64,000 nt of DNA. Origin: Squalus acanthias (Eukaryota). Each line of letters starts with the position of its first letter. Position 1 is the stretch's first letter. The notes under the pieces were generated by a model. That model saw only the letters and a list, made by a program, of their open reading frames with translations, did not search any database and had not been told where the DNA came from. Where the stretch lies: contig CM059432.1 in the NCBI GenBank assembly GCA_030390025.1, forward strand, positions 71,426,001 to 71,490,000, read 5' to 3'. Below are positions 1-56,764 of the stretch, piece after piece. Made by a program: the position numbers and the translations under genes.

Positions 1-1103
1 CCAAGAACCAGTCCAGCTCCCTATTGAAGGCATGCAGAGAGACTCACCACTTTCTTGGAAAAGAAGAACAACCTAACATCTAGCCTATTCCTACCGTTGC
101 GTAGTTTTAATGCATAACCCCCTGGTCTAGCCCAATCTGTCAACAGAAACAGTCGATCAATAGGGGTGCAATCCAGCCGTTTCATTATTTTATATACCTC
201 TATCGGGTCATCTCTAAGTCTACACTGCTCTAAAGTAAATAGACCCAGCTCTTTAAACCTATCTGATTAACTTTCTTTAAGCTATGAATCATTATTGTGG
301 CTTTCCTCTGAATCTTTTCTAAGGACACTATATCATTCAACATGCAATAGGACCAAACTTTTTTTAAATTCGCTTTATGAGATGTGGGCGTCGCTGGCAA
401 GGTCAGCATTTATTGCCCATCCCTAATTGCCCTTGAGAAGGTGGTGGTGAGCCGCCTTCTGAACCGCTGCAGTCCGTGTGGTGAAGGTACTCCCACAGTG
501 CTGTTAGGAGGGAGTTCCAGGATTTTGACCCAGCGACGATGAAGGATCGGCGATATACTTCTAAGTCAGGATGGTGTGTGATTTGGAGGGAAACTTGGAG
601 GTGATGGTGTTCCCATGCGCCTGCTGCCCTTGTCCTTCTAGATGGAAGAGGTCGCAGGTTTGGGAGGTGCTGCTGAAGAAGCCTTGGCGAGTTGCTGCAG
701 TGCATCTTGTAGATGGTACACACTGCAGCCACGGTACGCCGGTGGTGGAGGGAGTGAATGTTCATGGTGGTGGATGGGGTGTCAATCAAGCGGGCTGCTT
801 TGTCCTGGATGGTGTTGAGCTTCTTGAGTGTTGTTGGAGCTGCACTCATCCAGGCAAGTGGAGAGTATTCCATCACTCTCCTTACTTGTGCCTTGTAGAT
901 GGTGGAAAGGGTTTGGGATGTCAGGAGGTGAGACACTCACCGCAGAATACCTAGCCTCTGACCTGCTCTTGTTGTCACAGTATTTATGTGGCTGGTCCAG
1001 ATAAGTTTCTGCTCAATGGTGACCCCCAGGATGTTGATGGTGGGGGATTCGGCGATGGTAATGATGTTGAATGTCAAGGGGAGGTGGTTAAACTCTCGCT
1101 TGT

Positions 1104-1281
1104 GTACTGTAAACATTATTGATTATTTGTAAAATTAATCATTGCATTTATATTAACTATAAGGCTGTTTTTAAGGCTTTATTTTTTACTGTGGTGGATG
1201 AATGTAATGGATTTACTATGTAATGGATTTACTATGTAATTGATGAGTTGTACAGGTATTATTGTTTTTGAATAAAAATAT
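1104..1281 (+). mobile_element. 178-bp AT-rich retroposed insert with 16-bp target-site duplication
   Basis: TTAAACTCTCGCTTGT is present at 1088-1103 and 1282-1297. The insert is absent from the homologous site in copy 2 (about 46578-46593) and ends in AATAAAAATAT. Confidence 0.8.
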
Positions 1282-2078
1282 TTAAACTCTCGCTTGTTGG
1301 AGATAGTCATTGCCTGGCACTTCTGTGGCACGAATGTTACCTGCCACATATCAGCCCAAGCCTGAACGTCGTCCAGGACTTGTTGCATGCAGGCATGGAC
1401 TGCTTCATTATCTGAGTAGTTGTGAATGGCGCTGAACACTGTGCAGTCATCAGCGAACTGCCCCATTTCTGACCTTATGTTGGAGGGAAGGTCATTGATG
1501 AAGCAGCTGAAGATGGTTGGGCCTAGGATACTGCCCTGAGGAACTCCTGCAGCGATGTCCTGGGGCTGTGATGATTAACTTTCAACCACCACAACCATCT
1601 TCCTTTGTGCTAGGTATGACTCCAGCCAGTGGAGCGTTTTCCCCCTATTCCCATTGACTTCAGTGTTACTAGGGCTCCTTGATGCCACACTCGGACAAAT
1701 GCTGCCTTGATGTCAAGGGCAGTTACTCTTACCTCACCTTTGGAATTCAGCTCCTTTGTCCATGTTTGGACCAAGGCTGTAATGAGGTCAGGAGCCGAGT
1801 GGTCTTGGCGGAACCCAAACTGGGCATCAGTGAGCAGGTTCTTGGTGAGTTAGTGCCACTTGATAGCACTATCGATGACACCTTCCATCACTTTGCTGAT
1901 GATTGAGAGTAGACTGGTGGGGTGGTAATTGGCCGCGTTGGATTTGTCCTGCTTCTTGTGGACTGGACATACCTGGGCAGTTTTCCACATTGTCGGATAG
2001 ATGCCAGTGTTGTAGCTGTACTGGAACAGCTTGGCTAGAGGCGCGGCTAGTTCTAGAGCACAAGTCTTCAGCATGATA

Positions 2079-3302
2079 AGAACATAAGAACATAAGAAAT
2101 AGGAGCAGGAGTAGGCCAATCGGCCCCTCGAGCCTGCTCCGCCATTCAATAAGATCATGGCTGATCTGATCCTAACCGCCAATCTACTATCTATCACAGA
2201 ACCATCTCCTGCATCTAACAGAATTGCACACACAAAATAGGAGCAGAATCAGGCTACACAGTCCCTGGGCCCGCTCCACTACCCACAGGGCCATGACCGA
2301 TCCGAACCTAGACTCATGTCCAAATTCCTGCCCGCTCCCCGTAACCCTTAATGCCCTTTACTTCTAGGAAACTGTCTATTTCTGTTTTAAATTTAATTAA
2401 TGTTGTAGCTTCTACAGCTTTTTGTGGCAGCATATTCCATGGACCTACCACCCTCTGAGTGAAGTAGTTCCTCCTCATCTCAGTTTTGAAAGAGCAGCCC
2501 CTTATTCTAAGACTATGTCCCCTAGTTCTCGTCTCACCCGTCATCGGGAACATCCTCCCCGCATCCACCCGATCCAACCCCTTCACAATCTTATATGTTT
2601 CAATAAGATCGCCTCTCATTCTTCTGAACTCCAATGAGTAGAGTCCCAATCTACCCAACCTCTCCTCATATGACCACCCCCTCATCCCCGGGATTAACCG
2701 AGTGAACCTTTTTTGCACTGCCTCGAGAGCAAGGATGTCTTTCCTTAAGTAAGGACACCAAAACTGTATGCAGTATTCCAGGTGCGGTCTCACCAATACC
2801 TTGTACAACTGAAGCAATACCTCCCTATTTTTATATTCTATCCCCCTAGCAATGAAAGCCAACATTCCATTTGCCTTCTTAATCACTTGCTGCACCTGCA
2901 TACTAACCTTTTGAGTTTTGTGCACCAGGACCCCCAGATCCCTTTGCACTTCAGTACTCTCCAGTTTCTTGCCATTAAGATAATAAATTGCTCTAGGATT
3001 TTTCCTGCCAAAGTGCATCACCTCACACTTTCCAGTGTTGTATTCCATCTGCCAAATCTCTGCCCACTTACTTAGCCTGTCTATGTCCCCTTGCAGGTTT
3101 TTTATGTCCTCCTCACTCACTACTTTCCCTCCCATCTTAGTATCATCTGCAAATTTTGATATGTTACACTTGGTCCCTTCCTCCAAATCGTTAATATAGA
3201 TTGTAAAGAGTTGGGGACCCAGCACTGACCCCTGTGGAACACCACTAGTTACTGATTGCCAGTCTGAGAATGAACCATTTATCCCAACTCTTTGCTAGCT
3301 CA
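2079..3302 (-). mobile_element. 5'-truncated young CR1 LINE (ORF2 RT C-half, open ORF 2314-3225)
   Basis: ORF contains LGPQLFTIYINDL, KFADDTK, LVRPHLEYCIQFW and RRMRGDLIETYKI. The 3' tail is (TTCTTATG)n. ATGATA is duplicated at 2073-2078 and 3303-3308 in the host LINE. Confidence 0.95.
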
Positions 3303-5328
3303 ATGATAGCTGGGATGTTGTCGGGGCCCATAGACTTTGCTGTATCCAGTGCGCTCTGCCGTTTCTTGATATCACGTGGAGTGAATTGAATTGACTGAAG
3401 ACTGGCTTCTGTGATGGTGGGGACCTCAGGAGTAGGCCGATATGGATCATCCACTTGGCACTTCTGGCTGAAGATGTTTGCAAATGCTTCAGCCTTGTCT
3501 TTTGCACTCACGTGCTGGGCTCCACCATCATTGAGGATGGGGATATTCATGAAGCCTCCTCCTCCCGTTAGTTGTTTAATGGTCCACCACCATTCGCGAC
3601 TGGATGTGACAGGACTGCAGAGCTTTGATCTGATCCGTTGCTTGTGGGATCGCTTAGCCCTGTCTATAGCATGCTGCTTCCGCTTTTTAGCATGCATTTA
3701 GTCCTGTGTTGCAGCTTCCCCAGGTTTGCACCTCATTTTCAGGTATGCCTGGTGCTGCTCCTGGCATGCTCTTCTACACTCGTTATTAAACCAGGGTTGG
3801 TCCCCTGGCTTGATGGTAATGGTAGAGTGAAGGGATATGCTGGGCCATGAGGTTACAGATTGTGGTGGAATACAATTCTGCTGCTGCTGATGGCCAACAG
3901 CACCTCATGGATGCCCAGTTTTGAGCTGCTAGATCTGTTCTGAATCTACCCCATTTAGCACTGTGGTATTGCCACACAATATGATGGAGGGTGTCCTCAG
4001 TGTGAAGACAGGACTTTGTCTCCACAATGACTGTGCGGTGGTCACTGTTACCAATACTGTCATGGACAAATGCATCTGCGACAGGTTGATTGGTAACAGG
4101 TAGGTTTTTCCCACGTGTTGGTTCCCTCACCACTTGTCACAGGCCCAGACTGGCCACTATGTCCTTCACGACTTGGCCAGCTCAGTCAGTAGTGGTGCTA
4201 CTGAGCCACTCTTGGTGATGGACATTGAAGTCCCCCACCCAGAGTAAATTCTGCACCCTTGCTACTCTCAGTGCTTCTTCCAAGTGGTGTTCAACATGGA
4301 GGAGTACTGATTCATCAACTGAGGGAGGGTGGTAATCAGCAGGAGGTTTCCTTGCCCATGCTTGACCTGAAGCCATGAGACTTTATGGGGTCCGGAGTAA
4401 ATGTTGAGGACTCCCAGGGCCACTCCTTCCCGACTGTATACCACTGTGCCACCACCCCTGGTGGGTCTGTCCTGGGATGGTGATGGAGGAGTTTGGGACA
4501 TTGGCTGAAAGGTATGATTCTGTGAGTATGACTATGCCAAACTGTTGCTTGACTAGTCTGTGGGACAGCTCTCCCAATTTTGGCACAAGTCCCCAGATGT
4601 TGCAGGGTCAATTGGACTGGGTGTGCCATTGCCGTGTCCGTAGCCGGTGCCGAGGTCGATGCCAGGTGGTCCATCGGTTTCATTCTTATTATTGTGTTTC
4701 GTAGCGGTTTGTTACAACTGAGTGGCTTGCTAGGCCATTTCAGAGGGCAGTGAAGAGTCAACCACATTGCTGTGGGTCTGGAGTCACATATAGACCAGAC
4801 CAGGTAAGGACGGCAGATTTCCTTCCCTAAAGGACATTAGTGAACCAGATGGGTTTTTATGACAATCCAATAGTTTCATGGTTACCATTACTGATACTAG
4901 CTTTTTATTCCAGATTTATTTAATTAACTGAAATTAAATTTCCCAGCTACATCTCTGGATCGTTAGTTCAGGCCTTTCGATTACCAGCCCGGTGACATTA
5001 CCACTACATTACCATTCCCGTTGGACACAGAACTCTAGATGCTGTCTAACCAAGGACCTGTATAATGAAAGAATGGTGTCTTTGACTTGTATTGAATGGT
5101 TCTATTAATAAAACCCAATAACCTGTTTGCTTTGGCTACAGTTTCTCTGCATTAATCATGAAACTTGTGTGATCTGTGCACAATAACACCTAGATCCTTT
5201 TTCTTTCAATTGCTTTCAGCATAGTTCCCTGCAAATAGTAAATACATTCAGTGTTGGTCCTGCCTACATGCGTCACATTGCATTTGTCTAGGTTCAATGC
5301 CATTTGCCATTATTTGGCACAGTTTAAC

Positions 5329-42330: not shown

Positions 42331-42755
42331 TTCAATGCATTTAATATTTTCTATTTACTCCAGTTGTGTAGAATGATTCTGTATCACAGCTTAGTGATTG
42401 AAAATGAACCGCTGAGACTGTTCTGCCAGTTTAAAGAAGCAAAATAATATGAAGCAACCCAGTGGTACACAAGGATAGTTTGCCATTAAGATGCAAGTTT
42501 GTTAACCTATCTCTTGCGTGTTGAGTTCTCAAACTGTGTCAGACAATTGGACAGAGATATAGGCTGGATGTCCGAAGCTTTCATCAAACAAGGAAACAGT
42601 TGAGCTGGTTTTCCTGTTCTCCTTCACCTGGGTGCCAGGCAAACATAGTGCACCCTGACAGGGCCTCATGTCTATAAATGGGGACAGAAATACAACCGCT
42701 GTTGCAGGCTTGAGAGGTCTGCGGCAATGGGCAAGGACACCATCTTCAAGGCTTT

Positions 42756-43670
42756 AAGAACACAAGAACATAAGAATTAGAAGCGGGAGTAGGCCATACG
42801 GCGCTTCGAGTCTGCTCCGCCATTCAATAAGATCATGGCTGATCTTCGACCTCAACTCCACTTGCCCACCAACATTTAATAGTTTCTCATCATTTAAAAA
42901 ATACTATGCTTTTCTATTCTTCCTACCAAAGTGAATAACCTCACATTTCCCCACATTATACTCCATCTGCCACCTTATTGCCCATTCACTTAACCTGTCT
43001 ATATCCCTTTGCAGGCTCTTTGTGTCCTCCTCATAGCTTACTTTCCCACCTAGCTTTGTATCGTCCTCAAACGTGGATACATTGCACTGGGTCACTTCAT
43101 CTAAGTCATTTATATAGATTGTAAATAGCTGAGGCCCCAACACTGATCCTTGCGGCACCCCACTAGTTGCAGCCTGCCAACCTGAAAATGACCCGTTTAT
43201 CCTTACTCTCTGTTTTCTGTCCGTTAACCAATCCTCTATCCATGCTAAAATATTACCCCAACCCCATGAGCCTTTATCTTGCGTAACAACCTTTTATGTA
43301 GCACTTTATCAAATGCCTTTTGGAAATCCAAATAAACTACATCCTCTGGTTCCCCTTTATCTCCCCTGCTAGTTATATCCTCAAAAATCTCTGATAAATT
43401 TGTCAAACTTGATTTCCCTTTCATAAAACCATGTTGACTCTGCCTAATCATATTAAGATTTTCTAAGTGCCCTGTTACTACTTCCTTAATAATAGATCCA
43501 GCATTTTCCCAACAACTGATGTCAGGTTAACTGGCCTGTAGTTCCCTGTTTTCTCTTGCCCTCCTTTCTTAACATTTGCTACTTTCCAATTCACTGGGAC
43601 CTTTCTCGAATCTAGGGAATTTTGGAAGACCACAACCAATGCATCCACTATCTCTGCAGCCACCTCTTTC
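42756..43670 (-). mobile_element. Truncated, internally deleted CR1 LINE
   Basis: Fragments PQGSVLGPQLFTIYINDL, YLDFQKAFDKV and GNYRPVNLTSVVGK. The (TTCTTATG)-type tail is at 42756. Confidence 0.9.
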
Positions 43671-46600
43671 TGCCATACAAAAGTAACAGCTTGAATGCTT
43701 CCAGGCCTGAAGGTCTCTGGGGAGGCTGAAAAAAAAGGTTACACATACCTTTATAGATCTTCCTTGCAGGATCCTCCAATCTAAGAAGGGGCCTGGTGCT
43801 AGGCCTACTGCCAATTTCTGCTAACGCCTTGTCTTTGGGTACCCTTCCAGTGAATGTGGAGGAGAATGAGGAGAGAGGACTGGAGTTTTTCCTGCACAAT
43901 CTTTTTACCATGGTTGCCTGTAGTGGTTGTAAGTGCAGGTACTATGCACCTCCTCAGATAAAGCTTGGAAAATGTAGCATCACAGGTCTTCACCCTTTAT
44001 CCCCTTCATTGTGCCTGGAAACGGAGCAGTGCCAAGGCCCACTTGCCAGTAAAGTCAACCTCAGTGAGTCCTGCTGTCTCTACTTGTGCATTGTGCGTCT
44101 TCAGCTATAGCTATCTAATCTTACGGTCCAATAGCCACACTTTTCGAAGTGTTATAGACACAGATGTGAGAGAGAGGTGCCTGTCTGTCTTCTCAACTAG
44201 AGACCAGTGAGCGGTGCTAGGCAAAGCCCTTAAAAACAAAATGACTCAAAATAATATTTTATTTTTCATTTTTTAAAATCAAGAATATAGATTTTAAAAG
44301 AAAAGGGAAAACCAAAATCCCAATAACAAATTGTTCTCCACTCTTAAACTATTCCATTTACTGAGCTCTATTGCAAATTGACAGATTCAGATCATTATCC
44401 CAGATTGGATTCCTGCCTTCAATTTGCAGCTAAATACACACCAGCTCACCATTTGTCTTTTTAAAACTTGTTTACCATTGCAGCAGTCCATTTCTTCAAG
44501 ATGGAGACATTCTTTCAATGTCTTAATGCAGTGCTGCATAACAGAAGGCAGCGGATATTACTATTTAAAAAATATAACGCATGATTGTATGCCGGATCAT
44601 GTGACAGGAACTGCAGTGTTCCCAGGATTTTTTTATTATTCACTCTCCAGTATACTTATTTACAAAAAAAAGGGAGGGATTACAAGAAAATGTTCCCCAT
44701 TGAGAGGTTTAGATGAAATCATAATCCACAAGTATAACAATAAGATTATTAGAATCGCTTAATGCACGTGCTTTTATTTTTAATATGTACGTGTTTTGTT
44801 TTGACCATATAGATTAACATTCTTCTTGCTTTATCAAGATCCATTTTGATGTCTAGGACTTTCTTTTTGATACATGATGATACCTTAACTGAAAGATTAA
44901 TTGTGCAATAATCATCAGAAAATTGCCAGTAATAATCTGCAGTAGACTGTCTGGAAAGAACACTGCTCTGTATATTATCATTACTTAATTACTTGCTCCT
45001 GACAAAACTCATCCGTCTTTTAAGTCATAACTTAAAAGTTCTGTGTTTTACTTTAATTCTTTGATAACTTGTCCTATTTATATATTATATTACGCTGTGC
45101 AGAATATTCTCAGCAAAGCAGAATAAATAAAACGTTCACATCAATAATCATTCTCTAGGGAGCAAACTCAAACCCAAATAGTTAGTCCAGATATTTGTAT
45201 TCATTATTATTTGAAATAAAGATGAAAGCTAATTAGTCTCTACAAATATTTTGCAAGTTCAAGCACATGAAACATGAAGTAGATCTTGACCAGGAAACTG
45301 ATTATTTGCAAAATCAATTCCTGAATCTGAATTTGTAGAAAATTATTGCACAACATGTCTCCTTGAGACACTGCAGGAAAGTTTGTTTTGTTAGTGCCTA
45401 AAGTTCCCTTTATTGGCAGCAGAGGGTTGCCACCAGGAGATCTTCGAGGTGATGTATTTGGAGGAAAGGGTATCCAGTGGAAGGATGCCAGGCAGGTCAG
45501 GCATCCAAGAGGTGCTCTGGGTCCTGCTCCCTGCACCAGCACCCCAACATCCCCAGAGTTAGAAAACCTCATTTTGGCAGGAGTTGTTGATGGAGGCTTC
45601 TCTTCCTAATGACAGCTGTGCCAGCAGACCTGCTGGTGGCATCACAATGAGAAGTGAATGCCAGTCTAACCATTAAGCTAGACGTTTCTTTAGATACCTC
45701 CCAATCACAGCAGGAACGAAGGCATGCCAGGGTAAGCAGGAGTCAGCATTGTCTTTTTGGCCTCACTGATCAAGATGCCGCTAACCATTTCAATAGGCAC
45801 TAGCAAACCCTCCTGGTAACAAATATGGTAACCTGCCTTCCCAGAGTCTTTTTTTTTTCGTTCCTGGGATGTGGGCATCGCTGGCAAGGCCAGAATTTAT
45901 TGCCAATCGCTAATTGCCCTTGAGAAGGTGGTGATGAGCCGCCTTCTTGAACCGCTGCAGTCCGTGTGGTGAAGGTACTCCCACAATGCTGTTAGGGAGG
46001 GAGTTCCAGGATTTTGACCCAACAACAATGAAGGAACGGCGATATACTTCCAGGTCAGGATGGTGTGTAATTTAGAGGGGAACTTGGAGGTGGTGGTGTT
46101 CCCATGCGCCTGCTGCCATTGTCCTTCTAGGTGGAAGAGATCGCGGGTTTGGGAGGTGATGTCGAAGATGCTTTGGTGACTTGCTGAGGTGCATCTTGCA
46201 GATGGTACACACTGCAGCCACGGTGCACTGGTGGTGGAGGGAGTGAATGTTTAAGGTGGTGGATGGGGTGCCAATTAAGTGGGCTGCTTTGTCCTGGATG
46301 GTGTCGAGCTTCTTGAGTGTTGTTGGAGCTACACTCGTCCAGGCAAGAGGAGAGTATTCCATCACACTCTTTACTTGTGCCTTGTAGATGGTGGAAAGGC
46401 TTTGGGGAGTCAGGAGGTGAGACACTCGCCGCAGAATACCTAGCCTCTGACCTGCTCTTGTGGTCACATTATTTATGTGGCTGGTCCAGTTAAGTTTCTG
46501 GTCAATGGTAACCTCCAGGATGTTGATGGTGGGGGATTCGGCGATGGTAATGTTGTTGAATGTCAAGGGACGGTGGTTAGGCTCTCGCTTGTTGGAGATA

Positions 46601-47564
46601 TTTATTGCCTGGCACTTGTGTGGTGCAAATGTTACTTGCCACTTATCAGCCCAAGCCTGAATGTTGTCCAGGTCGTGCTGCATGCGGGCATGGACTGCTT
46701 CATTATCTGAGGAGTTGCAAATGGAACTGAACACTGTGCAATCAGCAGTGAACATTCCCACTTCTGACCCGATGATGGAGGGAAGGTCATTGATGAAGCA
46801 GCTGAAGATGGTTGTACCTTGGACACTGCCCTGAGGAACTCCTGCAACAATGTCCTGGGGCTGAGATAACTGACCTGCAACAACCATAACCATCTTCCTT
46901 TGTGCTAAGTATGACTCCAGCCAGTGGAGAGTTTTCCCCCTGAATCACATTGACTTCAATTTTACTATGGCTCCTTGATGCCACACTCGGTCAAATGCTG
47001 CCTTGATATCAAGTGCAGTCACTCTCACCTCACCTCTGGAATTCAGCTCTTTTGTCCATGTTTGGACCAAGGCTGTAATGAGGTCTAGAGACAAGTGGTC
47101 CTGCCGGAACCCAAACTGAGCATCAGTGAGCAGTTTATTGGTGAGAAAATGTCACTTGATAGCACTGTCGATGACACCTTCCATCACTTTGCTGATGATT
47201 GAGACTGATGGGGCGGTAATTGGCCGGATTGGATTTGTCCTGCTTTTTGTGGACTGGACATACCAGGGCAGTTTTCCACATTGTCTGATAGATGCCAGTG
47301 TTGTAGCTGTACTGGAACAGCTTGGCTCGAGGCGCGGCTAGTTCGAGAGCACAAGTCTTCAGCATGACAGCTGGGATGTCGTTGGGGCCCATAGCCTTTG
47401 CTGTATCCAATGCACTCAGCCGCTTCTTGATATCATGTGGAGTGAATCAAATTAGCTGAAGACTGGCTTCTGTGATGGTGGGGACCTCAGGAGGAGGCCG
47501 ATATGTATCATCCACGCGGCACTTCTGGCTGAAGATGGTTGCAAATGCTTCAGCCTTGTCTTTT

Positions 47565-49003
47565 ACCCCACTATTCAAAAAGGGTGGTAGAGAGAAAGCG
47601 GGGAATTACAGACCGGTAAGCCTGACATCGGTAGTGGGGAAAATGCTAGAGTCCATTATAAAGGATGTAATAGCTGAGCATTTGAAAAACAGTGACAGGA
47701 TCGGACAAAGTCAACATGGATTTACAAAAGGTAAATCGTGCTTGACTAATCTACTGGAATTTTTTGAGGATGTAACTGGGAAAATAGATAAGGGAGAACC
47801 AGTAGATGTGGTGTATTTGGACTTTCAAAAGGCTTTCGATAAGGTCCCGCATAAGAGATTAGCGGGTAAAGTTAAGGCACATGGGATTGGGGGCAAGGTA
47901 TTGACTTGGATAGAGAACTGGTTGGCGGACAGAAAGCAGAGAGTAGGAATTAATGGGTCTTTTTCTGAGTGGCAAGCAGTGACTAATGGGGTACCGCAGG
48001 GATCGGTCCTTGGACCCCAGCTATTCACAATATACATTAATGATCTAGATAAGGGAATTAAATGTAATATCTCCAAGTTTGCAGATGACACAAAGCTGGG
48101 TGGGAGTGTGTGCAGCGAGGAGGATAGCGAGAAACTCCAGGATGATCTGGACAGGTTGGGTGAGTGGGCAGAAGCATGGCAGATGCAATATAACGTGGAT
48201 AAGTGCGAGGTTATCCACTTTGGTGTCAAAAACAGAAAGGCAGACTATTATCTGAATGGCAATAGATTGGGAGAAGGGGAAGTGCAACGAGACCTGGGTG
48301 TCCTTGTGCACCAGTCGCTGAAAGTAAGCATGCAGGTGCAACAGGCGGTGAAGAAGGCAAATGGTATGTTGGCCTTCATAGCGAAAGGGTTTGAGTATAG
48401 GAACAGGGATGTCCTGCTGCAGTTGTACAGGGCCTTGGTGAGACCACACCTTGAGTACTGTGTGCAGTTTTGGTCGCCTTATCTGAGGAAGGATGTTCTT
48501 GCCATGGAAGGAGTTCAGCGAAGATTCACAAGGCTGATACCTGGGATGGCAGGAATGACATATGAGGAGAGATTGGGTCGATTGGGCTTATACTCACTGG
48601 AGTATAGAAGAATGAGAGGGGATCTCATCGAAACATATAAAATTCTGACAGGTCTGGACAAACTAGATGCAGGAAGAATGTTCCCGATGGTCGGAGAGTC
48701 CAGAACCAGGGGTCATAATCTATGGATAACGGGTAAACCATTTAGGACAGAAATGAGGAAGAATTTCTTCACCCAGAGGGTGGTGAACCTGTGGAATTCT
48801 CTACCACAGAAGGTAGTTGAGGCGAAGTCATTAAATATATTCAAGGATGAGTTAGATATATTTCTTAAAGCTAAAGGTATCAAGGGATATGGGGAGAAGG
48901 CAGGTACAGGGTACTGAGTTTAGATGATCAGCCATGATCTCATCGAATGGCGGAGCAGGCTCGAGGGGCTGAATGGCCTACTCCTGCTCCTATCTTCTAT
49001 GTT
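47565..49003 (+). mobile_element. Young 5'-truncated CR1 LINE with uninterrupted RT ORF (to 48917), inserted in LINE copy 2
   Basis: TPLFKKG..NYRPVSLTS..YLDFQKAFDKV..PQGSVLGP..FADDTK..LVRPHLEYCVQFW. The host sequence resumes at ACGTGCTGGG; about 6 host bases (GCACTC in copy 1) are missing and there is no TSD. Confidence 0.95.
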
Positions 49004-49811
49004 ACGTGCTGGGCTCCGCCATCATTGAGGATGGGGATATTCATGAAGCCTCCTCCTCCATTAGTTGTTTAATTAACCACCACCATTCACGACTGGATGT
49101 GGCAGGACTGCAGAGCTTTTATCTGATCCGTTGATTGTGGGATCGCTTAGCCCTGTCTATAGCATGCTGCTTCCGCTGTTTAGCATGCATGTAGTCCTGT
49201 GTTGCAGCTTCCCCAGGTTGGGAGCTCATTTTTAGGTACGCCTGGTGCTGCTCCTGGCTTGCTCTTCTGCACCCCTCTTTGAACCAGGGTTAATCCCCTG
49301 GCTTGATGATAATGATAGAGTGGGGGATATGCTGGCCATGAGGTTGCAGATTGAGGTGGAATACAATTCTGCTGCTGCTGATGGCCCACAGTGCCTCATG
49401 GATGCCCAGTTTTGAGCTGTTAGATCTGTTCTCAATCTATCCCATTTAGCACGGTGGTAGTGTTACACAACTCGATGGAGGGTGACCTCAGTGTGAAGAC
49501 ACGACTTCGTCTCCACAAGGACTCTGTGGTGCTCATTGATACCAATGCTGTCATGGACAGATGCATCTGCAACAGGTAGATTGGTGAGAATTACATCAAG
49601 TAGGTTTTTCCCTCATGTTGGTTCTCTCACCACCTACCGCAGACCCAGTCTGGCAGCTATGACCTTCAGGACTCAGTCAGCTCGGTCACTAGTGGTGCTA
49701 CCGAGCCACTCTTGGTGATGGACATTGAAGTCTCCTACCCAGAGTATATTCTGTGCCCTTGCTACCCTCAGTGCTTCTTCCAAGTGGTGTTCAACATGGA
49801 GGAGTACTGAT

Positions 49812-51147
49812 GACCAGTTAGCCTAACATCTGTCATTGGGAAAATGCTGGAGTCCCATCATTAAGGAAGTGGTAGCAGGACATTTAGAAAGTCATAATAT
49901 AGTCAAGCAGAGTCAGCATGGTTTTATGAAAGGGAAATTATGTTTGATAAATTTGTTGGAGTTCTTTGAGGATGTAATGAGTAGGGTGGATAAAGGGGAA
50001 CCAGTAGATGGCGTGTATTTGGATTTCCAGAAGGCATTCGATAAGGTGCCACATAAAAGGTTACTGCACAAGATAAGAGCTCACGGGGTTGGGGGTAATA
50101 TATTAGCATGGATAGAGGATTGGCTAACTAACAGAAAACAGAGAGTCGGCATAAATGGGTCATTTTCAGGTTGGCAAACTAACTAGTGGGGTGCCGCAGG
50201 GATCAGTACTGGGGCCTCAACTATTTACAATCTATATTAATGACTTGGATGAAGGGACCGAGTGTAATGTAGCCAAATTTGCTGATGATACAAAGATAGG
50301 TGGGAAAGCAAATTGTGTGGAGGATGCAAAGAATCTCGAAAGGCTAAGTGAGTGGGCAAAAATCTGGCAGATGGAGTATAATGTGGGAAAATGCGAGGTT
50401 ATCCACTTTGGTAGGAAAAATAAAAAAGCAAATTATTATTTAAATGGGGAGAGATTACAAAATGCTGAGGTACAGAGATATCTGGGGATCCTTGTACATG
50501 AATCACAAAAGGTTAGCATGCAGGTACAGCAAGTAATTAAGAAGGCAAATGGAATGTTGGCCTTTATTGCAAAGGGAATGGAGTATAAAAGTAGGGAAGT
50601 CCTGTTACAACTGTATAGTGCATTGGTGAGACCACACCTGGAGTACTGCGTACAGTTTTGGTCTCCTTATTTGGAGGCAGTTCAGAGAAGGTTCACGAGG
50701 TTGATTCCAGAGATGAAGGGGTTGTCTTATAAAGAAAGGTTGAGCAGTTTGGGCCTATACTCATTGGAGTTTAGAAGACTGAGAGGGGATCTTATTGAAA
50801 CATATAAGATTCTGAAGGGGCTTGACAGGGTATATGCAGAGAGGATGTTTCCCCTCATGGAGGAATCTAGAACTAGGGGGCATAATTTCAGAATAAGGGG
50901 TCGCCCATTTAAAACGGAAATGAGGAGGAATCCTTCTCTCAGAGGGTCGTGAATCTTTGGAATTCTCTTCCCCAGAGAGCTGTGTCATTGAATATATTTA
51001 AGGTGGAGATAGATAGATTTTTGAATGGTAAGGGAGTCAAGGGTTTTGGGGAGCGGGCAGGGAAGTGGAGTTGAGGCCATGATCTTATTGAATGGCGGAG
51101 CAGGCTCGAGGGGCCAAATGACCTACTCCTGCTCCTAGATCTTATGT
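49812..51147 (+). mobile_element. 5'-truncated CR1 LINE (frameshifted) inserted in LINE copy 2
   Basis: ORFs 49836-50186 and 50155-50952 carry CR1 RT motifs. Host GGAGTACTGAT|TCATCAGCTGAGG is split around it. Confidence 0.93.
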
Positions 51148-51789
51148 TCATCAGCTGAGGGAGGGCGGTAGGTGGTAATCAGCTGGAGGTTTCCTTGCCC
51201 GTGCTTGACCTGAAGCCGTGAGACTTCATGAGGTCCAGAGAATCAGTGTTGATGACTCCCAGGGCCACTCCCTCCCGACTGTATACCACTGTGCTGCCAC
51301 CTCTGATGGGTCTGTCCTGCCGATGGGACAGGACACACCCACGGATGGTGATGGAGGAGACTGGGCTGAAAGGTATGATTCTGTGAGTATGACTATGTCA
51401 GGCTGTTGCTTGACTAGTCTGTGGGACAGCTCTCTCAATTTTGGCACAAGTCCCCAGATGTTAGTGAGGAGGACTTTGCGGGGTTGACTGGGCTGGATGT
51501 GCCATTGTCATGTCCAAAGCCAGTGCCGAGTGGTCTGTCCGGTTTTATTCTTATTATTGCTTTTCGTAGCAGTTTGTTACAACTGAGTGGCTTGTTAGGC
51601 CATTTCAGAGGGCAGTTAAGAGTCAACCACAAGGAGTCACATATAGGCCAGACCAGGTAAGGACAGAAGATTTCCTTCCCTAAAGACATTAGTGAACGAG
51701 ATGGGTTTTTATGACAATCCAATAGTTCCATGATCACCATTACTAGCTTTTTATTTCAGATTTATTTAAGTGAATTTAAATTCCCAGCT

Positions 51790-51885
51790 TCCGTGGTGGG
51801 ATTTGAACTCACGTCTACTGGATCATTAGCGCAGAGCTTCTGGATTACTAGTCCAGTAACATAACCACTAAGCTACCATTCCCGT
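51790..51885 (-). promoter_or_regulatory. tRNA(Thr-AGT)-like head with Pol III internal promoter (A box and B box)
   Basis: Minus strand: A box TAGCTTAGTGG (51865-51875), anticodon arm CTGGA-CTAGTAA-TCCAG (51840-51856), T arm/B box GTGAG-TTCAAAT-CCCAC (about 51796-51812). Confidence 0.8.
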
Positions 51886-55055: not shown

Positions 55056-56764
55056 AGTATGTTTTCACTTTTTAGAATTGTTAACGTTGCAATTGACTGA
55101 TTCACCAACTGTAAATGCATGTCGGTTCTTTTAATAAATCTCTATATATTTTTAGAATTGTCTCTCATAAGTCTTCTGTATCAAAAACTCGCGAACTCAA
55201 TTTCTGTACACTCTTTGGTATAGAGTTACAGAATTCTGGGGGAGTTTTCCGGACCCTCATAATATCCGGGATGTTACAGTCTAGCTAAACTTATTAAAAG
55301 CGCTATCTGGAGGACGGTAGCATTCTCGGGTTGTTCCTTTCCTTTAGGGAGAGATAGTCCGGACCTTTAGACCCAATTAAGCGTCTTTAGGATTCGGCTA
55401 CCTCAAACTTTAGTTGAAAGTGAACATCTGAGAAATATGCCTGATCCGGGGTAGCCCTAAAGGGGCTAGGACTAGTAAAAACCCATTCACAGTGCCGCTA
55501 TGTCCTATTTATTATAATATGGTGACCAGAACTGTACACAGTACTCTAAGTGTGGTCTAACCAAGATTCGATATAAGTTTAGCATAATTTCTCTATTTTT
55601 CAATTCTATCCCTCTAGAAATAAACCCTAGTGCTTGGTTTGCTTTTTTCATGGCCTTATTAAGCTACTTTTAGTGATTTGTGTATTTGTAGTCCCTTTGC
55701 TCCTCTACCCAATTTAGATTCTTATTTTCCAAGTAATATGTGACCTCCTTATTTTTCTTACCAAAATGTAATACCTCACATTTATCTGTGTTGAAATTAA
55801 TTTGCCAATTATATGCCCATTCCGCAAGTTTATTAATGTCCTCTTGTAATTTGTTGCAGTCCTCTTCCGTATTGACTATCCCCACCCAATTTGGTGTCAT
55901 CCGCAAAATCAGAAATTGTGTTTTTGTTCTAAACTCTAAATCGTTAATATAAATTGTGTACAACAGTGGTCCCGACACTGATCCTTGTGAAACCCAACTT
56001 TCCACCTTCTGCCACGCTGATTAGCTACCCTTTAAGAACATAAGAACATAAGAATTAAGAGCAGGAGTAGGCCATACGACCCTTCGAGCCTGCTCTGCCA
56101 TTCAATAAGATCATGGCTGATCTTCGACCTCAACTCCACTTTCCCGCCCAATCCCCATATCCCTTGATTCCCCTAGAGTCCAACAATCTATCTATCTCAG
56201 CCTTGAATAAACTCAACGACTGAGCATCCAATGCCCTTTGGGGTAGAGAATTCCAAAGATTCACAACCGTCTGAGTGAAGAAATTCCTCCTTATCTCAGT
56301 CTTAAATGGCCAACCTCTTATCCTGCGACTATGCCCCCTAGTTCTAGACTCTCCAGCCAGGGGAAACAACCTCTCAGCATCTACTCTGTCAATCCCCCTC
56401 AGAATCTTATATGTTTCAATGAGATCACCTCTCATTCTTCTAAACCCCAGAGAGTATAGGCCCATTCTATTCAATCTCTCCTCAGAGGACAACTCTCTCA
56501 TCAATCTAGTGAACCTTTGTTGCACCGCCTCTAAGGCAAGTATGTACTTCCTCAGATAAGGAGACCAAAACTATGCACAGTACTTCAGGTGTAGTCTAAC
56601 CAAAGCCCTGTACAATTGTAGTAAGACATCCTTACGCTTGTTCAACAGCCCCCTTGCAATAAAGGCCAACATGCCATTTGCCTTCCTTATTGCTTGCTGT
56701 AGCTGCATGCTAACTTTCTGTGTTTCCTGTACGAGGACACCTAAATCTCTCTGAACACCAACAA

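Follow-up and report, generated by a model that had tools for sequence, protein, structure and literature searches.

A tRNA-derived 5' end on Zenon LINEs of sharks and rays and its possible role as an RNA polymerase III promoter

Introduction

Can a protein-coding retrotransposon carry a promoter for RNA polymerase III (Pol III) as its own 5' end? Long interspersed nuclear elements (LINEs) are usually regarded as protein-coding products of RNA polymerase II (Pol II), and short interspersed nuclear elements (SINEs) as non-coding products of Pol III. The question is raised by a stretch of 64,000 nucleotides from Squalus acanthias (assembly GCA_030390025.1, contig CM059432.1, positions 71,426,001 to 71,490,000 of the forward strand), hereafter called the window, in which a first-pass annotation made from the letters alone had marked positions 45850-51885 as a LINE opening with a head derived from a transfer RNA (tRNA). 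Two decayed copies of this LINE lie on the minus strand of the window (copy 1, 358-5021; copy 2, 45848-51885) and are assigned below to the published Zenon family of elasmobranchs. A conserved head of this kind on a LINE makes the usual division testable.

Two independent insertions

Copy 2 is interrupted by two CR1 inserts of opposite strand and copy 1 by a same-strand CR1 insert and an AT-rich insert (Table 1). With the nested inserts removed, the hosts measure 3255 and 3264 nt and are 89.7% identical over 3181 aligned columns. Both copies start at the same base and share a plus-strand terminal 11-mer (5011-5021 and 51875-51885) beyond which the flanks are unrelated, as had been noticed at first reading, and both end in short A tails. 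Because the flanks fail to align (local alignment score 20 on the 5' side and 20 on the 3' side) while the inner sequence is 89.7% identical, the two copies are independent insertions. A 5-nt target-site duplication, AGACT, is found at both ends of copy 2; copy 1 has no convincing duplication, its best exact match being 4 nt. The span originally marked as a LINE thus contains a real element, but 2.8 kb of it is nested CR1. The open reading frames (ORFs) of both copies are disrupted by stops and frameshifts and no longer encode an intact protein.

A tRNA-derived head

The A box, anticodon-type arm and B box of copy 2 lie where the first-pass annotation had placed them, with 54 nt between the A and B boxes. 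A covariance-model search (cmscan) of a 441-nt region matched the tRNA model RF00005 at 51795-51876 with 24.4 bits (E 0.0078), which falls below the Rfam gathering score of 29, and the match covers only model positions 7-64 of 71. Over the whole window cmscan gave no match of any kind and ARAGORN no tRNA, so that the head is a derived one and not a functional tRNA gene. It folds no better than shuffled sequences (fold z -0.29), and with relaxed settings ARAGORN called nothing in copy 1 and, in copy 2, a Gln tRNA of implausible fold. Whether these boxes serve the full-length element as a Pol III promoter appears to us an evenly balanced matter.

Two details of the first description had to be revised. 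What had been taken for an enlarged variable region of about 27 nt holds a tandem second copy of the anticodon arm, which agrees with the original arm at 13 of 17 positions in each of the two insertions (P about 0.0003 by shuffling). The proposed descent from a Thr tRNA, deduced from the anticodon AGT, found no counterpart among 115 natural tRNAs sharing the D-loop and anticodon-stem pattern of the head (41 Gln, 25 Ser, 24 Tyr, 0 Thr), where no isotype stood out; these were ARAGORN calls (120 viral loci), and tRNAs of viral contigs are a poor reference set. A head-motif scan gave no match in viral contigs and a single chance match, in unrelated DNA, in metagenome contigs. Among the viral-contig tRNAs, one of 87 nt called as Asn and one of 92 nt called as Gly show variable regions that are unusually long for their isotype. 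Judged by eye, the duplicated arm keeps a 5-bp stem and a 7-8-nt loop in four shark species despite different stem sequences, an apparent case of compensatory change, and is deleted in the stingray consensus.

Assignment to the elasmobranch Zenon family

Zenon LINEs that have no ORF1 and end in a poly-A tail were described in elasmobranchs, coelacanth and hagfish (PMC13343379, 2026), where they make up 0.7-6.8% of the five elasmobranch genomes; the supplement offers 10 Zenon consensuses, seven from sharks and rays and three from hagfish and coelacanth. The first 400 nt of each consensus were compared by eye. All seven shark and ray consensuses, from five species, open with the same head, body and head-to-leader junction, and all seven keep both the A-box motif and the B-box motif, the stingray B box being degenerate; the spacer between the boxes varies in both sequence and length. 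SquAca_Zenon-1 is the closest. No such head is visible in the three hagfish and coelacanth consensuses, whose 5' ends may be poorly resolved and two of which contain several TTTT runs in this part. By this 5' match the element is assigned to the published elasmobranch Zenon family of the CR1 group.

The idea of a LINE with a tRNA-derived 5' end therefore stands in so far as the family itself begins with this head, which is present in two independent copies and in seven of seven elasmobranch consensuses. The novelty that had been suspected is narrower: the family is already catalogued and the head lies within the deposited consensuses, but it passes unremarked in the main text of PMC13343379, where the words tRNA, promoter and polymerase do not occur, nor does tRNA in the supplement. 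No description of the head, of the short forms discussed below or of a TTTT deficit was found in the available parts of that source. Neither a tRNA head on shark Zenon nor an autonomous LINE made by Pol III is described in the literature searched, which includes the available text of PMC5499810, PMC6685494, PMC4824008, PMC11481361, bioRxiv 10.1101/443036, PMC4758252, PMC3747384 and PMC10468316 and had Repbase, Dfam and subscription journals outside its scope. The head is a real feature, an unusual and unremarked 5' architecture in a known family.

Coding region and start of translation

The reverse transcriptase (RT) of the element matches PF00078. Over both broken copies, full-length homologs found by tblastn align from the APE endonuclease as far as the C-terminus. 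Between the 5' end and the endonuclease Asn codon there are 423 nt in copy 2 and 420 nt in copy 1, which leaves no room for a normal ORF1; upstream frames are only short, and the lack of ORF1 noted at first reading is thereby confirmed. The 3' ends carry A7 and A10 runs, a poly-A rather than a microsatellite tail, and poly-T loose ends occur at 381 on the plus strand in three contig runs.

A protein search with the RT end gave 390 longer proteins among 1773 candidates; the best of the 120 listed are 35-39% identical, and nearly all of those listed are unnamed. In an RT tree of 49 rows (the 45 best of 118 listed proteins with at least 250 aligned residues, two host sequences and two CR1 sequences) the element stands apart from the nested canonical CR1 copies (100/100; 28% identity). 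Its neighbours are unnamed proteins, mostly of 935-983 aa where full length, in a tree whose rows include no named Zenon, L2 or RTE references. A protein-based scan of viral contigs confirmed no relatives. At NCBI, the horn shark gene model 'FERM domain-containing protein 7-like' opens with ~105 residues of Zenon RT (71% identity), probably an annotation artefact or an exonized repeat.

Neither copy has an ATG in frame ahead of the endonuclease. In close homologs a Met stands 9-31 residues before the endonuclease motif (all seven full-length tree neighbours in which the motif was read). An ATG follows the A-rich tract of the leader in six of the seven elasmobranch consensuses and in copy 1; in the stingray consensus its frame requires, by eye, a -1 shift to reach the endonuclease, and the same holds for copy 1 once an extra base at 4674, seen in many contigs, is allowed for. 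A frameshift or a re-initiation step leading into the endonuclease may be put forward as a hypothesis. A search for intact endonuclease N-termini gave no decision on the start codon: the five gene models it returned are short and apparently decayed, and their starts differ.

Short forms and their origin

The 5' half of the element, or part of it, is present in 20 of the 24 listed sequencing runs. In the runs aligned on copy 1 (four in all, namely contig runs and one raw-read run) the family is very abundant, its depth falling off toward the 5' end apart from a second peak over the head body. The summed contig depth of the body is 2-2.5 times that of the endonuclease in two genomic-type runs. 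In a run guessed to be RNA the head exceeds the endonuclease ~21-fold in depth, a figure not used as evidence because contig depth reflects expression poorly. The raw-read run contributed only 268 reads, 97% of which run on into unlike sequence.

Among the 15 joints shown (5971 further joints are not shown), five skip the nested CR1 and six link the 3' tail with the head or leader, breaking at 4716, 4713 (two joints), 4741, 4699 and 4636. The resulting forms, made of head and tail with several junctions, measure roughly 380-540 nt. Four of the six joints break past 4716, within the leader of the LINE, as would be expected if the deletions arose in a LINE already provided with its head. The four additional letters at the 4713 joint make up the rest of a five-base stretch that, by eye, occurs both in the leader of the catshark consensus and in the tail, as a deletion at microhomology would leave it. 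Read from these junctions, the short forms would be SINE-like derivatives of Zenon. The window itself contains no head-only or head-plus-tail SINE copy. Of the features that define a SINE2, the head with A and B boxes is present in the element (copy 2), and shortness and lack of coding capacity are found only in the short forms, the element itself being 3.3 kb long.

Possible transcription by Pol III and its alternatives

An ancestral Zenon is proposed to have acquired the head of a tRNA or SINE through template switching, before the split between sharks and rays. Transcription by Pol III would begin ~10 nt upstream of the A box, continue through a body poor in terminators and end in T runs of the flanking DNA. 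The uncapped RNA would be translated in a non-canonical way, the endonuclease being reached from the ATG after the A-rich tract by a -1 shift or re-initiation. Once bound to the 3' tail, the protein would insert the RNA by target-primed reverse transcription, so that each full-length copy would carry the promoter. Internal deletions would give SINE-like passengers directly, no new head being needed. That the head is the internal Pol III promoter of the whole element, which would be mobilized through target-primed reverse transcription and shed SINE-like passengers by deletion, is in our judgement as probable as its contrary. The fuller proposal, in which an autonomous protein-coding retrotransposon is made by Pol III as a 3.3-kb uncapped RNA purged of terminators, is translated from a non-canonical start or after a -1 shift, yields SINEs by internal deletion and accounts for several percent of shark genomes, falls slightly short of an even chance.

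Pol III in vertebrates terminates at four or more T. The sense strand of the element has no TTTT run in 3255 nt and one in 3264 nt, compared with 19 such runs in six CR1 stretches of the same window that together measure 5737 nt. The deficit reaches P 0.007 and 0.024 under a base shuffle and P 0.03-0.08 under synonymous-codon nulls (2.0-2.4 kb of in-frame sequence). The same termination argument was used in PMC4494074.

Several observations weigh against transcription from the head. Between the copies, the tRNA part is the least similar region (75% over 77 columns, against 92.6% in the body and 91% in the ORF), and the head of copy 1 has lost 22 nt, B box included. Under a dinucleotide shuffle the TTTT deficit has P 0.06 and 0.13, and TTTT ranks 8th and 20th in depletion among the 256 four-mers; the element is T-poor with C-ending codons, and its two copies share ancestry and are not independent samples. 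As a signature of Pol III the deficit is modest and suggestive only. An uncapped RNA must still be translated. The short SquAca_Zenon-2 consensus has, by eye, an ATG in frame with the endonuclease, which argues against an obligatory shift.

Pol II might find its promoter in the well-conserved body. On the main competing explanation the head is an inherited 5' end, and it is Pol II that transcribes the full-length element, using the body or promoters in the flanks; the boxes would then be kept for TFIIIC binding or insulation, for RNA structure, or for use by the short forms only. LINEs and their bipartite derivatives are generally taken as Pol II transcripts (PMC5786205), the tRNA part is less well conserved than the body, strict nulls leave only a weak TTTT deficit, and the U1 and U2 heads of crocodilian Tx1 elements, which lack an internal promoter (PMC4494074), indicate that heads from small RNAs can ride on LINEs without a promoter role. 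However, the boxes are kept across five species while the spacer between them changes, the 5' end lies where a tRNA-type promoter would begin transcription, and avoidance of TTTT would serve no purpose in a Pol II element and is not seen in the neighbouring CR1 copies. We regard Pol II transcription as a serious possibility, though somewhat less probable than transcription from the head.

Two further explanations deny that head and LINE form one replicating unit or that the copies are separate events. The head of an independent SINE might have been joined repeatedly to LINE cDNAs by template switching, as in U6-L1 chimeras, and the abundance of head-plus-tail short forms, with the excess depth of the body in two genomic-type runs, would agree with this. 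Independent switches would scatter junctions on 5'-truncated LINEs, whereas both copies and all seven consensuses share one head-to-leader junction and a full-length ORF, so that such recurrent chimerism is already largely refuted and very improbable. That the two copies stem from one segmental duplication, or that a LINE landed in a resident SINE, could appeal to the unclear target-site duplication of copy 1. The shared flanks by which the first-pass annotation would have recognized a duplication are absent on both sides; no remnant of a SINE lies beyond either A tail, each copy has its own set of nested inserts, and the same head is found in the consensuses of other species, so that this account is hardly credible.

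Comparison with known elements

The published elasmobranch Zenon elements (SquAca_Zenon-1/2/3 and those named CarCar, RhiTyp, ScyCan and HypSab_Zenon-1; PMC13343379) agree with the copies described here in length (~3.3 kb), in the single APE-RT ORF, in the lack of ORF1 and in the A tail, and no structural difference was noticed by eye in their first 400 nt. A Zenon LINE of Lepidoptera likewise repeatedly yielded internally deleted short elements made of its 5' and 3' parts, the Persaeus SIDE (PMC6740152). Unlike the element described here, Persaeus carries a Zenon 5' end without tRNA homology or a Pol III promoter (PMC6740152); the deletion products of the shark element look like SINEs because its own 5' end is tRNA-derived. 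Heads derived from small RNAs are also known from the autonomous Tx1-Mar LINEs of crocodilians, which share U1 and U2 small nuclear RNA heads with SINEs (PMC4494074), but these heads have no internal promoter and the elements belong to another clade (PMC4494074). RTE-1_DAn, of yet another clade, is an autonomous LINE with a tRNA-like sequence whose position and function are not stated in the available text (PMC5786205).

The layout of the short forms, that is, a tRNA head, a LINE 5' part and a LINE 3' tail, is that of Bov-tA, SINE2-1_ACar and other SINEs built from a tRNA and a bipartite LINE (PMC5786205). In the model proposed for the Bov-tA type (PMC5786205) a headless parent LINE first undergoes the deletion and the head joins later, whereas the Zenon parent here is headed. 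SacSINE1 (Deu-SINE) and HE1 (V-SINE) are likewise tRNA-headed shark retroposons. Their reported tail partners are L2-2_CM or a CR1-4_DR-like element for SacSINE1 and HER1 for HE1, whereas the short forms carry a Zenon tail, a comparison made by description only. A head of the SacSINE1/Deu type was the first guess and was dropped on the differing reported tail partner, the two being set apart by description only.

In elasmobranch Zenon, a large and long-lived vertebrate LINE family combines a conserved tRNA-type head with an almost complete lack of Pol III terminators. It would open a path from LINE to SINE in a single step and allow translation of uncapped RNA to be studied where it occurs naturally. 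Should Pol II prove to transcribe the element, the finding reduces to an annotation feature that had gone unremarked in a published family, and to a cause of mis-called SINEs in shark genomes.

Feature coordinates and other elements of the window

Table 1. Positions of the two Zenon copies, their parts and the sequences nested in them
Feature	Position	Strand	Basis or remark
Copy 2 tRNA-derived head	51795-51885	-	cmscan, motif positions
Copy 2 A box	51865-51875	-	head motif
Copy 2 anticodon-type arm	51840-51856	-	head motif
Copy 2 duplicated arm	51818-51834	-	13/17 match to anticodon arm
Copy 2 B box	51799-51810	-	head motif
Copy 2 conserved non-coding body	51581-51794	-	common to short SINE-like forms
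Copy 2 leader	51463-51580	-	A-rich tract, then GC-rich stretch; no in-frame ATG ahead of endonuclease
Copy 2 ORF piece 1	51147-51462	-	start of APE endonuclease, NIWGL motif
Nested CR1	49812-51146	+	5'-truncated, canonical, foreign to element
Copy 2 ORF piece 2	49004-49811	-	remaining APE domain and linker
Second nested CR1	47565-49003	+	485-aa open RT frame, PF00078
Copy 2 ORF piece 3	45910-47564	-	RT and C-terminus, ending LLKGN-stop
Copy 2 3' untranslated region (UTR) and A tail	45848-45909	-	short
Copy 1 head and body	4716-5021	-	B box lost in 22-nt deletion
Copy 1 leader	4602-4715	-	ATG at 4683, out of frame with endonuclease
Copy 1 ORF piece 1	3304-4601	-	APE, linker
Nested CR1 in copy 1	2077-3303	-	skipped by contigs of other family members
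Copy 1 ORF piece 2	1287-2076	-	RT
AT-rich insert in copy 1	1104-1286	not assigned	16-nt duplication at ends
Copy 1 ORF end, 3' UTR and A tail	358-1103	-	stop 423-425; last 77-150 nt = tail of short forms

The AT-rich insert of copy 1, ~180 nt long, has contig depth over it and looks like a short retro-insertion of another family. One CR1 nested in copy 2 retains an uninterrupted 485-aa RT frame (47460-48917, plus strand) and, since this frame is still uninterrupted, is much younger than its Zenon host. A CR1 3' tail of ~80-90 nt with a short tandem-repeat end occurs five times in the window (2077-2167, 42755-42866, 48926-49003, 51076-51149 and 56033-56123), and beyond its own 3' end the CR1 insert of copy 1 seems to have one more tail module.

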